Part shown: positions 8,018 to 13,614 of the stretch, piece by piece | Layout of the letters: each line of letters starts with the position of its first letter | Position numbering within the stretch: the first letter of the stretch is position 1 | Origin: Roseburia sp. | GTDB lineage: Bacteria; Bacillota; Clostridia; Lachnospirales; Lachnospiraceae | Length of the DNA stretch: 64,000 bases | Direction: 5' to 3' | NCBI GenBank assembly: GCA_045121975.1 | Contig: JBGVHB010000059.1 | Coordinates: 16,337-80,336, forward strand | The notes under the pieces: model-generated | Databases searched by the model: none | Seen by the model: only the letters and a program-made list of their open reading frames with translations | What the model was told of the DNA's origin: nothing | Position numbers and translations under genes: made by a program

Positions 8018-10201
8018 ATGGAAAAGAAGAAGAAAACAGTTCAAAAAGTAGTGAAACAAAAGACAGTTCAGAAAACAAAGAAACAGGTTTCCAAAGGAAA
8101 GAAGCCCGCTTCTAAAATAAAAAAACAGACTTCGAAAATGAACAAGCGGACCAATACAGGAAAGAAACAGTTATTATTATTCAGTATCCAGAATAAATTA
8201 ATTATCTGCTTCTTAGTTCCAATTTTATTTATGATATTATTAGGAACAGTATCCTATCAGAAGGCTGCAACAGGAATGAGTAAAGCGTTCTGCGAATCGA
8301 CACAGCAGACAGTCAATATGGCAACAGAGTATATTGATGTCAGCAATTCGTTCATTGAGTCAGAGGCGCTGAAATATGTTGTAAACGATGAATTGAGAAA
8401 ATACATTGTTGGTATGTATGATGACGATTCTGCAAAGAAGCGTTCCGTTATCGACCAGGTGCAGTCCGATATTCTTGCATCACAGGTTGGTAATTCCTAT
8501 ATCAGTCATATGCATATTGTAACTTCCTCTGAGACAAAGATGATTTCTACAAAGACGAAATCATCCACAGGAATTTATGAGGATTATATGGCAGAGACGA
8601 TGACTGGGGAAAAATGGGTGAAGTGGACAGATTATCATCATGCATTAGACGAGCATTTAAGCTTAGATACCTCTGAATATATTCTTGTCTGCCAGATGGA
8701 GACAAAGGCTGGCGATGGTATTATCGTCATTGATATTAAGAGCGAAGTCATTCAGGAGTTTTTACAGGGCTTGAACTTAGGTGAGGGAAGTATTGTTGGT
8801 TTTGTTACTGCCGGAGGAAGAGAGATAGCAGTCGAACAGCAGGCAGGTGCAGAAGAAGGAACTTTAATTACAGACCGCACCATTTTCCCGGAGCAGGCTT
8901 TTTACCAGAATATCGGCGAAGGCACAGATGCAGTAGAAGTTACATATGAAGGAACACAGTATTTGTTTTTCCATAATAAGAGTGATGTAACGGGTGCGAC
9001 AATGTGTGCACTTGTTCCAATGCAGGTAGTCAATGGTCAGGCAGAAGATATTAAGGAATTAACAGTGGTTGGTGTTATTTGTGCCAGCATTATTGTTATT
9101 ATAATCGGTATTGCGATTTCTAATGGAATCCGAAAAAATATGACACGTCTTTCCAAAGGCTTTGAGGTAGTTGCAGAAGGTAACTTAGCTGCACAGGTTG
9201 CAGTAAAAGGACGTGATGAATTCCGCGGTCTTGCAGCAACAGCAAACAATATGATTGCTAATAATAAGCAACTGGTGCAGAAAGTTAGTATGGCGACAGA
9301 CCGACTAGAAGAATCAGCAGAAGAAGTAACAGATGTATCGGGCGTGATTCAGGAATATTCTGTAGATATTACGCAGGCAATTGGCGAGATTACCAATGGT
9401 ATGGAGAAACAGTCTGTGCATGCACAGGAATGTGTTGAAAAAACAGATACGCTTTCAGAGGAGATTCATGAGGTAAATCGTCTGGCAAGAGAAGTTGAAG
9501 TGCTTGTAGGAAATGCCGAAGACATGATTCATCATGGTATGGAGCTGGTAAATGTATTAGGCGAACGTGCAAACGAGACAACCGAGGTTACTGCGAAGGT
9601 AGAAGAAAGTATCTTAGAACTTAAGAAAGAGTCTGAGATTATTAATAAGTTTGTTGCAATGATTACTGATATTTCTGAGCAGACGAACCTGTTATCCTTA
9701 AATGCATCTATTGAAGCTGTAAGAGCCGGAGATGCAGGACGTGGATTTGCAGTTGTTGCAGAAGAGATTCGTAATCTGGCAAATAACTCTGCGGATGCCG
9801 CAAACGAAATCCGCAACAATGTAGAACACATCAGTGCACAGACAATTGTCAGCGTAGAAAGTGCGCAGCAGGCAGGCTCTATGGTTGCATTACAGACAGA
9901 AGCAGTATCCGAAGTGACCGCAGTATTCCAGAATATGAACGTTGCAATGGAAGAGTTGTTTGACGGACTTAAGAAAATCATGGATGAAACAGAACATGCA
10001 GATAGAGACCGTAACGGAACTTTAGAGGCAGTCCGTAATATTTCACAGATTATTGAAGAGACAGCAGAAAGTGCTGAGGTCGTTAAGAATGTAGCAGAAA
10101 ATCTACAGGTAAATGTAGAGAAGTTAAACGGAACAGCAGAAAGTCTTGGAAATAACATGAGTGGACTTAAGACAGAGATTTCCGTATTTAAAACAGAATA
10201 A
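8018..10201 (+). CDS. Methyl-accepting chemotaxis protein
   Basis: Two TM helices, HAMP (GRDEFRGLA), signalling hairpin [31 protein letters not shown]. Confidence 0.93.
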
Positions 10202-10250
10202 ACAAAACCAAGCAAAGGGAAATGGCGCATGCCATTTCCCTTTTTTACTG

Positions 10251-10863
10251 AATGCTGTCACAAAACATTTATTGAAAGTGCATTAAACCATAATTTGCAT
10301 TATCACAAGTTTACATCATTCGCTTTGATTCTTCTGACAATAAAAAGTTTGAAGAACGTGTCAAATAAACTTGAAATTCTACTGCTTTTTCCGATGAAAT
10401 CGTTATCTTTTATGTCCGCTCAAGGTCTTTACACCCACAAAAAAGTGTTCGCATGGAAAAGGAAATTTGCGTTTCTCAGTTTTCTTAGTACATCTTACAG
10501 GGCAGCTTTGACAAAACGGAATCCGGCGGACGCAGGAGAACAGTACCTATCTTAATTAAGCAACGTAACGCCCTCCTTTGCGGTAGCCGGATTCTAATAT
10601 CGACTTTGCCAAAGCTGCCCTGCTAGATGTACTTGAAAGCTGTAGACCGAAATTTCCGTTCCAATGCGGACACTTTTTTGTGGGTGTAAAACGCGTGAGC
10701 GGACACAAAACGTTTATTCATCGGAAAAAGCAGAGAATTTCTAAGTTTTTATCCAACGTTCTTCAAACTTTTCCTTGCAAAAGAATCAATGTGAATGTTC
10801 AAAGTTTCTGATAATGCAAATTATGGCTTTGAAAAACACCACAAAATGTTTTGTGGCAGCATT
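10251..10863. repeat. ~613-bp imperfect palindrome (giant hairpin) filling the intergenic region
   Basis: About a dozen colinear inverted blocks, e.g. 10288-10305/10809-10826 (18/18) and 10428-10454/10664-10690 (26/27). Confidence 0.93.
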
Positions 10864-10932
10864 ATCTAGTAATTGCAGTGAGGATTTGGTACAATAGGAG
10901 AAGACAAATTCGAAAAGACAGGTTTGAAATAA

Positions 10933-13614
10933 ATGAGAAAATTAGTAATTGGAATTACCGCGCATGTAGATGCGGGAAAGACAACACTTTCCGAAGGAAT
11001 GTTGTATACCAGTGGCGCGATTCGCAAAATTGGGCGAGTAGATAATCAGGACGCATTTTTAGATACAGATGCTTTAGAAAAAGCAAGGGGAATCACAATT
11101 TTTTCTAAGCAGGCTGTATTTTCCTATGCGGATATGGATGTCACATTGCTAGATACGCCGGGACACGTTGATTTTTCTGCGGAGATGGAGCGAACCTTGC
11201 AGGTGCTTGACTATGCGATTCTTGTAATCAGCGGCGCAGATGGCGTGCAGGGACATACGCAGACACTTTGGAGATTGTTAAAACGTTATCAAGTGCCGGT
11301 ATTTTTGTTTGTCAATAAAATGGACCAGCCAGGAACAGACAAAGAGGCATTGCTTGCAGAGTTAAAAGAAAAGCTGTCCGATGGCTGTATCAGCTTTTCT
11401 GATGGTGAGACAGAAAGCTTTTATGAAGAGATTGCAATGGAAGAAGAAGCTGCAATGGAGGAATTTTTAGAGACAGGCAGTCTTCCTTATGAAAAAATAA
11501 AAACATTAATTGCAGAGCGGAAAGTATTTCCATGTTTCTTCGGCTCGGCGCTCAAATTAGAGGGCGTGGAAGAATTTTTGCAGGGACTGGCTTTTTATAC
11601 ACTTGAGAAAAATTATCCGGGTGATTTTGGCGCGAAGGTATTTAAAATTGCAAGAGATGAGCAGGGTAGCCGTCTTACTTATATGAAAATAACTGGTGGA
11701 AGCTTAAAGGTAAAAGCACTGCTGACAAATAAGCGGGAAGAAGATACCACAGGAGAAATCTGGGAAGAAAAAGTAAATCAGATTCGCGTTTATTCGGGAA
11801 GTAAATTTGAAGCGGTGTCAGAAGCTAAGGCAGGCAGTATCTGTGCAGTAACCGGATTAGAACATACCTTTGCAGGCATGGGACTTGGATGTGAAGAAGC
11901 GTCCATGCTGCCGCTTTTAGAGCCGGTATTGATGTACCGCATCCTTTTGCCGGAAGGATGCGAGCCGGCACAGATGCTTCCCAAATTACGTCAGCTTGAG
12001 GAAGAAGAACCAGAGCTTCACATTGTCTGGAATGAGAAACTGCAGGAGCTTCAGGCTCAGATTATGGGTGAGGTTCAGACAGAAGTTTTACAGAGCATGA
12101 TAAAAGAACGTTTTGATATAGACATTTCTTTTGGGGAAGGCAATATTGTTTACAAGGAAACAATTGCAAATACTGTAGAAGGTGTCGGTCATTTCGAGCC
12201 GCTGCGCCATTATGCAGAAGTGCATCTGTTATTAGAGCCGGCAGAGCGTGGAAGTGGCATGCAGTTTGCAACAAACTGTAGTGAGGATTTGTTAAGCAAA
12301 AACTGGCAGAGATTGATTTATACACATTTAGAGGAAAAGGAGCACATCGGTGTGCTGACAGGTTCTGTGATTACCGATATGAAAATCACTTTAATCGCAG
12401 GACGCGCACATCAGAAACATACGGAGGGCGGAGATTTCAGACAGGCAACCTACCGCGCGATTCGTCAGGGTCTGATGGAAGCAGAAAGTGTGTTGTTAGA
12501 GCCTTATTATGAATTTCGTTTAGAAGTTCCGCAGAATATGGTTGGCAGGGCAATGACAGAACTTGACCAGATGCATGGCAGCTTTGAAGGTCCATTTACT
12601 GAGGGTGACATGGCGGTTTTGACCGGAAGTGCACCAGCAGCCTGCATGCGTAATTATCAGAAAGAAGTGACTGCATATACAAAGGGCTGTGGCAGATTAT
12701 CCTTATCTTTAAAGGGATATGATGTGTGTCATAATGCAGAGGAAGTAATCGCAAAAATTGCTTACGACCCGGAGCGTGACCTTTCAAACCCGACAGGCTC
12801 GGTATTCTGCGCTCATGGCGCAGGCTTTGTGGTGAACTGGGATGAAGTGAAAAATTATATGCACTTAGAGGGCATCGGGGCAAAAACATCAGAAGAAAAG
12901 CTGGAAGATAGTGCGGCAAAAGCAGTTTACCAGTCATCCTATGAGCCGGAGGAATGGATTGACGCAGAGGAAGTGGATGCGATTATTAACCGCACCTATC
13001 ATGCGAATACCCACGAGAAAAGTGCTGTTAAGAAATGGAAAAATAATAAGCGTGTGATTCAGGCAGCGGAATCTGTTTATACGCCAATTCGAAAGACAAC
13101 GCCAAAAGAAAAATACCTGTTGGTGGATGGATATAATATTATTTTTGCGTGGGAAGAACTTCATGCATTAGCAGAAACCAATATTGATGGAGCAAGAGGA
13201 AAGCTTCTTGATATTTTAAGCAATTATCAGGGAATTCGTAAATGCAATCTGATTGTCGTATTTGATGCGTATCGTGTGGCGGGGCATCAGACAGAGATTT
13301 TTGATTACCACAATATCCACGTGGTTTATACCAAAGAGGCAGAGACTGCCGATGCTTATATTGAGAAATTTGCGCATGAGAACGGACGTAAATATGATGT
13401 AACGGTTGCGACCTCAGACGGCTTAGAGCAGATAATTATCCGCGGACAAGGATGCAGACTTTTTTCTGCAAGGGAATTTGCAGAGGAGATAAAAAATGCA
13501 AATGCTTCTATTCAGGAAAAAATGCAGGAAGTATCAGAGCAGGCGCACAATTATCTGTTAGACCACGCATCCGAAGAAGTGAAACATGCGTTGGCAAATG
13601 AGAAACAAGAATAA
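10933..13614 (+). CDS. TetM/EF-G-like translational GTPase fused to a C-terminal YacP/Rae1-type NYN RNase domain
   Basis: AHVDAGKTT, RGITI, DTPGH, NKMD, EF-G domain IV/V motifs; C-terminal LLVDGYN, VVFDA, TADAYIE, VATSD. Confidence 0.88.
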   Translation: MRKLVIGITAHVDAGKTTLSEGMLYTSGAIRKIGRVDNQDAFLDTDALEKARGITIFSKQAVFSYADMDVTLLDTPGHVDFSAEMERTLQVLDYAILVISGADGVQGHTQTLWRLLKRYQVPVFLFVNKMDQPGTDKEALLAELKEKLSDGCISFSDGETESFYEEIAMEEEAAMEEFLETGSLPYEKIKTLIAERKVFPCFFGSALKLEGVEEFLQGLAFYTLEKNYPGDFGAKVFKIARDEQGSRLTYMKITGGSLKVKALLTNKREEDTTGEIWEEKVNQIRVYSGSKFEAVSEAKAGSICAVTGLEHTFAGMGLGCEEASMLPLLEPVLMYRILLPEGCEPAQMLPKLRQLEEEEPELHIVWNEKLQELQAQIMGEVQTEVLQSMIKERFDIDISFGEGNIVYKETIANTVEGVGHFEPLRHYAEVHLLLEPAERGSGMQFATNCSEDLLSKNWQRLIYTHLEEKEHIGVLTGSVITDMKITLIAGRAHQKHTEGGDFRQATYRAIRQGLMEAESVLLEPYYEFRLEVPQNMVGRAMTELDQMHGSFEGPFTEGDMAVLTGSAPAACMRNYQKEVTAYTKGCGRLSLSLKGYDVCHNAEEVIAKIAYDPERDLSNPTGSVFCAHGAGFVVNWDEVKNYMHLEGIGAKTSEEKLEDSAAKAVYQSSYEPEEWIDAEEVDAIINRTYHANTHEKSAVKKWKNNKRVIQAAESVYTPIRKTTPKEKYLLVDGYNIIFAWEELHALAETNIDGARGKLLDILSNYQGIRKCNLIVVFDAYRVAGHQTEIFDYHNIHVVYTKEAETADAYIEKFAHENGRKYDVTVATSDGLEQIIIRGQGCRLFSAREFAEEIKNANASIQEKMQEVSEQAHNYLLDHASEEVKHALANEKQE

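Follow-up and report, generated by a model that had tools for sequence, protein, structure and literature searches.

The window, the whole stretch of 64,000 nucleotides analysed here, comes from a Roseburia genome (G000) of 3.95 Mb in 129 contigs. Between a chemotaxis-receptor (MCP) gene and a GTPase gene it holds an imperfect palindrome of 613 bp (window 10251-10863, centre near 10557), located 7 nt 3' of the MCP-gene terminator and 70 nt 5' of the GTPase gene start (10933). The original prediction had read this palindrome directly from the letters, and a repeat search of the window recovered its arm pairs: 10251-10270/10844-10863 (95%), 10338-10398/10717-10777 (79%), 10408-10468/10650-10710 (85%), 10487-10515/10605-10633 (90%), and 10519-10534/10579-10594 (81%). 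When folded, either strand gives a single unbranched rod in which 486 of the 613 nt are paired, with a minimum free energy (MFE) of -305.7 kcal/mol on the + strand (shuffles about -133; z about -34) and -318 kcal/mol on the - strand (shuffles about -142; z about -30). The parts of the locus are as follows.

10214..10248, + strand: conventional intrinsic terminator that closes the preceding MCP (chemotaxis-receptor) gene, AAAGGGAAATGGC GCAT GCCATTTCCCTTT (10214-10243) then a T-run
10251..10288, unstranded: left outer arm, copy-specific, paired with 10826-10863
10289..10825, unstranded: core of 537 bp, common to all family copies, an imperfect palindrome about 75% self-complementary
10289..10305, unstranded: left core terminus CATAATTTGCATTATCA, exact complement of 10809-10825, retained in small deletion derivatives
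10413..10422, unstranded: sequence-conserved helix TGTCCGCTCA, paired with TGAGCGGACA at 10696-10705
10445..10452, unstranded: GTGTTCGC, paired with GCGGACAC at 10666-10673 and including a T-G wobble
10505..10532, unstranded: left apical conserved motif GCTTTGACAAAACGGAATCCGGCGGACG, with AAAACG[G/T]AATCCG near-invariant across species
10533..10579, unstranded: variable apical hairpin, centre CTTAATTAAG at 10551-10560
10580..10615, unstranded: right apical conserved motif GCGGTAGCCGGATTCTAATATCGACTTTGCCAAAGC, with the asymmetric bulge (C)TAATAT
10809..10825, unstranded: right core terminus TGATAATGCAAATTATG, pairing with the left terminus
10826..10863, unstranded: right outer arm, outer part TTTTGTGGCAGCATT(ATCT)

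The MCP terminator (10214..10248) lies outside the repeat and is kept at the orthologous site in the sister species G156, the closest species available, whose flanking genes share about 82-86% DNA identity with those of G000. Five Roseburia species keep the helix TGTCCGCTCA/TGAGCGGACA, one of whose pairs covaries (C-G to A-U). The difference between GTGTTCGC and GCGGACAC, described earlier as a G-U-compatible change within a helix, is indeed a G-T wobble (pair 49-298), present in all aligned G000 and G156 copies (15 of 20 sequences). The apical hairpin (10533..10579 in the window copy) differs between species in both sequence and length, from about 11 to 95 nt. At the outer edge, the orthologous spacer of G156 has no counterpart of the left outer arm (10251..10288), which therefore resembles the right-hand flank copied in inverted orientation; that element-less spacer does contain TTTTTGTGGTAATTATCT, a homolog of the TTTTGTGGCAGCATT(ATCT) in the right outer arm.

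A second strain of this species, diverged by about 0.9%, also has the element here, and its 731-bp spacer shows 0 differences; the surrounding sequence of the two strains has 80 differences in 8.7 kb. This identical spacer in an independent assembly, together with dozens of copies elsewhere in the genome, establishes that the palindrome is not an assembly artefact, which the original prediction had already thought improbable. Over window positions 9720-11004, the comparison with the other strain (L151) gave 0 differences in 1.28 kb, and the MCP gene gave 18 in 2.2 kb. No insertion polymorphism or empty allele was seen at the window locus between the two strains available. Exact protein matches to the GTPase led to one strain that has the element and to one contig that breaks off within it, and an exact-protein look-up with the MCP for further strains returned no record.

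No conserved open reading frame was found across copies and species, the longest frames differing in strand, frame, and position, in line with the earlier view that the palindrome holds no credible one. A 108-aa frame on the + strand (window 10229-10555), which runs through the left arm, is conserved in no other copy and is best ignored in annotation. An Rfam scan (E <= 1) produced sub-threshold noise, with a best match of 23 bits against a gathering score of 57, and this absence of any Rfam family match agrees with the original statement that no known feature type fits.

The palindrome is one of about 45 loci of a dispersed family in G000, a fact that cannot be seen from the window alone. About 33 copies are at least 460 bp long and 82-94% identical to the window copy, and at least 12 more are shortened by deletion, some of them to very short remnants; because some copies lie at contig ends, the total is a minimum. 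Together, the roughly 45 rods make up about 0.5% of the genome. Copies in G000 match the window copy at 87-94% in one relative orientation and at only 70-76% when reversed, which means that the differences between the arms are inherited features of the family.

The core has a mean identity of about 88% among G000 copies. Outside it, each copy remains self-complementary for 40-75 nt more, in a sequence that differs from copy to copy: within the outermost 50 nt, complementarity is 75% between the two arms of one copy, compared with 60% for arms of different copies and 55% for shuffles. The ends of the element are its least conserved part, at 58-60% between copies versus about 88% for the core. 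One subfamily has a loose consensus end, consisting of an A-run and GRSCTGTTGCAAAAAC and also given as (A)nGRSCTGTTGCAAAAAC. Two pairs of copies 6-7 kb apart (C27:21762-22268 with C27:28275-28776, and C121:240813-241350 with C121:247568-248103) are mutual closest relatives in the copy tree, which suggests local copying or local gene conversion. G000 also contains a second, unrelated family of near-perfect palindromic repeats, GGGACGCAGCCTAAATTT(C/T)(G/A)AAAT, with about 150 half-site matches on 23 contigs (e.g., to the right of the copy at C98:13487-14026); in G156, members of this family (loci L158 and L162) fill gene-end sites that hold a giant rod in G000.

BLAST against 40 relatives found no family match outside G000 except a faint apical one, and diverged relatives were detected instead through the conserved pattern of the right apical motif. 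Rod-like families of 0.52-0.75 kb, multi-copy and often at contig ends, are present in G024, G130, G135, G156, and G060, all of them Roseburia. A motif scan of one genome per species, covering 185,579 species, returned Roseburia MAGs only, plus a handful of chance matches that have no palindrome. The viral contigs, phage records, and plasmid records searched held no family match, and metagenome matches with a palindrome comprised three contigs, one labelled red deer, with G000-like or G024-like sequences. Thus, the family was found only in a subset of Roseburia species. Our literature search found no description of these repeats in Roseburia, and the family is one of undescribed, non-coding, giant fold-back repeats. 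Another rod-like palindrome of about 500 nt occurs in a different Roseburia species (G008, loci L091 and L092); it was detected only through AATATAATATAGTTTTTGCCAAA and has no other motif in common with the family studied here.

Conservation between species was assessed in 20 copies drawn from five species, aligned over their central 270-335 nt. Near-invariant motifs (TCCGCT.AAGG; CTT.CTTAG; CAAAACG[G/T]AATCCGG.GGACG; CGG.AGCCGGATT..ATATCGA.TTTG.CAAAG; CTT.G.AAGCTG; T.AGCGGACA.AAAA) are interspersed with helices of differing sequence, and the loop and apical motifs are kept even between species in which the helices have almost wholly diverged (G000 versus G024 and G130). RNAalifold predicted 92 pairs for this alignment, 48 of them with compensatory double changes. 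Paired cells amounted to 96.0%, compared with 84.5% in shuffles, none of 500 of which reached so high a value, and with 38-46% in a control in which the partner was slid by 1-3 columns. Covariation combined with retained asymmetric loops indicates that the fold-back is under constraint. The proposal that selection acts on a fold-back structure, rather than random decay of an inverted duplication, is thus upheld by the covariation check on homologs that had been suggested for it.

A giant structured RNA had been one of the candidates put forward, but tests of strandedness did not favor it. Mismatches of the G-U type number 290 on the + strand versus 363 on the - strand over whole elements, and 9 versus 13 among copy-private changes. 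The central domain has a mean MFE of -160 on the + strand and -157.5 on the - strand, whereas the consensus fold favors the + strand somewhat (-103 versus -83). Copies between co-directional genes are oriented with transcription in 7 cases and against it in 11, which is no bias, and orientation relative to replication direction, as given by the sign of GC skew (|skew| 0.14-0.24), is 19:17. A promoter scan found no conserved sigma-70-type promoter; one weak - strand site, TTGACA-16-TATTGT at 10364-10337, is present in only about half of copies. Such strand symmetry is expected from a palindrome maintained at the DNA level and is not usual for an RNA gene read from one strand.

Position relative to genes is far less even. 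Among 34 copies with two called neighbors, 16 have convergent neighbors, 18 have co-directional ones, and 0 have divergent ones, so that copies adjoin gene 3' ends only. The distance from core to stop codon is mostly 25-60 nt, and the outer arms accordingly start at or just past stop codons (0-40 nt from them). At C112:14650-14717 in G000, the frame of the upstream gene runs about 14 codons into the outer arm before its stop, and insertion or arm extension may there have replaced the C terminus of the protein. In 12 of 23 copies, the base of the rod is marked by a left-hand A-run and a right-hand T-run; the window copy lacks this pair, and several copies, the window copy included, adjoin a separate conventional terminator.

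Many copies are decaying from within. Internal deletions that leave common ends form a graded series, whose largest members measure about 390 bp and whose smallest are hairpins of about 55-60 bp that resemble bidirectional terminators (C86:129342-129728, C121:246745-246890, C74:108590-108665, and C113:86645-86700, together with C122:182610 and C53:125715 from the comparison with G156). The same internal deletion occurs at C86:47409 and C86:94496, 47 kb apart, in flanks that differ between the two loci and are mutually complementary at each; judging from these sequences, gene conversion could explain the shared deletion as well as transposition.

The comparison with G156 shows both persistence and turnover. 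At least six loci are filled in both genomes between orthologous flanking genes; for instance, the flanking genes of C35:7052 share 82-84% protein identity between the species and are best matches in the genome. About 10 loci of G000 are replaced in G156 by other hairpins, ordinary terminators, or remnants, of which one (L154) retains a recognisable piece of the core and another retains both outer arms, and about six loci filled in G156 are short or empty in G000, two being mini-derivatives that retain the termini. The family therefore predates the species split, and copies have been gained, lost, and eroded from the center. The element-less orthologous sites may be ancestral or may be deletion remnants, the sequences accommodating both readings. 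Identity between orthologous copies is only 70-71%, whereas a copy and its paralogs within one genome share 92-95%, and the copy tree groups by genome except for one old subfamily. This pattern implies that cores are homogenised between copies, by gene conversion or repeated overwriting, which would explain why cores are alike and outer arms are not.

A second kind of copying appears to act within each element. We compared 25 copies of the main subfamily and collected substitutions private to one copy; these are somewhat rarer in helices, at 0.22 per paired column versus 0.33 per unpaired column. Within helices, 18 private changes were double changes that restore a Watson-Crick pair and 37 were uncompensated, where we would expect only about 0.25 compensated pairs by chance on our own rough estimate. 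Frequent one-step compensation among recent, copy-specific changes points to copying from arm to arm, not to slow selection of second-site changes. Template switching in quasi-palindromes repairs stems and expands inverted repeats (PMC8794818; PMC7202029; PMC13100816), and one-step compensation with stem extension is a known signature of template-switch mutation (PMC8794818; PMC13100816).

Two loci bear on the outward growth of the palindrome. At each (the window locus compared with G156:C1, and G156:C64 compared with C116 of G000, L115), all that the element-less ortholog retains is the right-outer-arm sequence, which recurs in inverted form as the left outer arm of the filled allele. After the left flank, the filled allele presents the right flank inverted, then the element, then the right flank in its normal orientation, an arrangement that fold-back copying would produce; a one-sided deletion is the alternative. 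From these patterns, we infer that the arms are probably kept complementary mainly through arm-to-arm copying by template switching. Such copying should erase asymmetries between the arms, so the survival of the loops across species argues for selection on the loops themselves. Quasi-palindrome template switching would account for multi-base one-step compensation, homogenisation of the arms, and outward growth of the inverted repeat (PMC8794818; PMC7202029; PMC13100816). However, it is a mutational process and not an element family, and it leaves unexplained both the dispersal to about 45 loci and the conserved asymmetric loops.

A search for an enzyme that might move the rods in G000, by end motifs and by Y1 transposases, identified none. 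Genome-wide, no pair of end motifs brackets an open reading frame as in an autonomous parent. The only Y1 transposase is of the IS200 type (152 aa, C122:21384-21827, Pfam Y1_Tnp E = 3.5e-41), a match confirmed with Pfam. We rejected it as a partner: its end hairpins (CCACC..GGTGG) bear no relation to the rods, the closest of which lies at a distance of 107 kb. A 120-bp fragment of the IS200 element lies at C121:259137-259249. Palindromic elements derived from IS200/IS605 (PATEs) were set aside as well, since their insertion is expected to follow replication direction (the lagging-strand template) and 19 versus 17 was observed. Among the three hypotheses first proposed, a non-autonomous hairpin element is the best fit, given about 45 dispersed loci and turnover between species, but the part that attributed its movement to an HUH/Y1 enzyme found no support, the sole Y1 having unrelated end hairpins and the copies being oriented 19:17 relative to replication.

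Among known systems, the closest likenesses are to small hairpin repeats. Like the rods, REPINs are non-coding, extragenic, present in dozens of copies, and fold as whole units into a long hairpin in single-stranded DNA or RNA; they show compensatory changes on both sides of the hairpin, vertical persistence, and remnants left by decay (PMC3116915, PMC3337134), and compensatory change, extragenic location, and vertical persistence were each observed for the rods. REPIN excision products are reported to leave part of the right end behind (PMC3116915, PMC3337134), which resembles the one-arm remnants at two rod loci. Yet a REPIN measures about 0.1 kb and the rods 0.54-0.75 kb, 5-6 times larger; the terminal REP sequences are the conserved part of a REPIN, whereas in the rods the center and internal loops are conserved and the termini are most variable; and a RAYT is flanked by the same repeat, whereas the rods, whose host is a Firmicute, have no such cognate RAYT. 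Membership in REPIN/RAYT was rejected, as neither conserved REP ends nor a repeat-flanked single-copy RAYT was found.

Long-palindrome, MITE-like repeats (Correia/NEMIS, ERIC/IRU, YPAL, RPE, Coxiella QMITEs, and pneumococcal SPRITE) share AT-rich, intergenic, non-coding, multi-copy sequences (PMC10969869, PMC3184786), and they too form stable stem-loops as transcripts or single strands, some of them acting as or resembling Rho-independent terminators, and nest with other repeats (PMC10969869, PMC3184786). The rods differ in having neither conserved terminal inverted repeats (TIRs) with a target-site duplication (TSD) nor a related autonomous insertion sequence that we could find. They differ further in that the rod is the entire 0.6 kb, with conserved asymmetric loops, locus-specific complementary arms, and concerted evolution of the core. 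Neither a target-site duplication nor sharply bounded conserved termini were found at the copies, whose flanks are mutually complementary and not direct repeats. A classical MITE was therefore rejected, there being no family-wide conserved TIR (the consensus end occurs in one subfamily only), no TSD, and no parent insertion sequence.

Integron attC sites, which are recognised as folded single-stranded DNA, resemble the rods in combining variable sequence with a conserved fold and unpaired or extrahelical features. They are 57-141 bp long, stand in cassette arrays beside an integrase, and end in R-box GTTRRRY motifs; the rods, at 540-750 bp and dispersed at ordinary gene ends, are not attC sites. 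Viroids, Obelisks, OLE, GOLLD, and ROOL are alike in their length of about 0.6 kb, and viroids also in being an unbranched rod with a central conserved region. In contrast to these RNA replicons and large non-coding RNAs, the rods are chromosomal DNA at about 45 loci, fold equally on both strands, are randomly oriented, and have no Rfam match. The rods are best filed as unusually large hairpin-forming intergenic repeats of the REPIN or long-palindrome MITE type.

The reading we prefer, and to which we give about an even chance, is that the rods are selfish fold-back elements resembling REPINs or MITEs, maintained at the DNA level and served by a putative mobilising partner. Such an element would live as DNA and not as a dedicated RNA, snapping into a hairpin on either single strand exposed by replication. 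Template switching within the quasi-palindrome would keep the arms complementary and could extend the palindrome into the flank, and recombination between copies would homogenise the cores. The loops and the apical motif would most plausibly be recognition features for a putative trans-acting protein that copies or moves the element, by analogy with REPIN and RAYT. As a by-product, many copies probably act as transcription terminators or insulators of the adjacent genes. Points against this reading are that the search turned up no mobilising enzyme, no target-site duplication, no sharp conserved ends such as classical MITEs or REPs have, and no insertion polymorphism between the two strains.

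Persistence, conserved loops, and zero differences between strains would also fit a function for the host, and the preferred reading must be weighed against a domesticated element that spread anciently and is now under selection locus by locus, serving as a host-maintained bidirectional terminator or insulator or as a site for nucleoid or replication proteins that bind the loops. The restriction of copies to gene 3' ends, with arms starting at stop codons, fits this view well, as do the A-run and T-run at the base of 12 of 23 copies, the tightness of most loci, which leaves no room for another terminator, the orthologous copies kept across species, the lack of strain differences in an element whose flanking genes differ, and the other hairpins or terminators that stand at rod-less sites in the sister species. 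However, a 0.6-kb rod with sequence-conserved loops far exceeds what termination needs, and several copies, that of the window among them, sit beside a separate conventional terminator. Moreover, over half of the loci compared differ between sister species, many copies are decaying by deletion, and private substitutions are common in helices and loops alike. We regard domestication as rather unlikely. Structured RNA, whether as non-coding RNA genes or as cis-acting 3' UTR elements whose product is the rod itself (acting, for example, as a sponge for proteins, as a substrate of RNase III, or as a viroid-like rod with a central conserved region), seems less probable still. Strong covariation with conserved loops is what it would predict; a few + strand wobbles are conserved (such as pair 49-298, U-G in 15 of 20), the + strand has a somewhat more stable consensus fold (-103 versus -83), and read-through from the upstream gene is likely from position. 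Against this stand the lack of overall strand bias in G-U versus A-C mismatches, mean MFEs that are equal on both strands, an orientation random with respect to neighboring transcription (11:7), a weak promoter site in about half of copies in place of a conserved sigma-70-type promoter, the absence of an Rfam match, and the many truncated copies.

The data also bear on whether an enzyme is needed at all. Runaway palindromes could spread and grow through template switching and homologous recombination, with loop conservation reflecting nothing but recent ancestry, and the private one-step compensated changes, the two loci at which an outer arm is the inverse of an opposite flank found alone in the element-less ortholog, the homogenisation of cores within a genome, and the failure to find a partner gene all speak for such a process. 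We nevertheless consider it very unlikely, because loops and apical motifs persist where helices have diverged (G000 versus G024 and G130), when unselected copying should have erased them, and because recombination alone could hardly carry copies to unrelated loci that lack flanking homology. A more speculative possibility, which we judge improbable, is a DNA replicator defined by its structure. Here, the 0.6-kb hairpin would be the thing inherited, would be recognised through an asymmetric-loop "central conserved region", and would insert at gene ends by fold-back or copy-choice, duplicating the target flank in inverted form and relying either on no transposase at all or on a hypothetical enzyme able to read single-stranded DNA in its folded state.

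In bacteria, a palindrome several hundred base pairs long is generally expected to be short-lived, and here about 45 large ones lie in a single genome and have persisted since before a species split. With many copies at contig ends, the rods evidently break Roseburia assemblies, and they yield textbook-looking "covariation" even though nothing indicates an RNA gene, a pattern that pipelines for RNA discovery should guard against. The family offers a natural system in which to study how large DNA hairpins are maintained by template switching (copying from arm to arm) and by recombination among copies, how such hairpins become terminators, and which protein might read a folded 0.6-kb rod of DNA.
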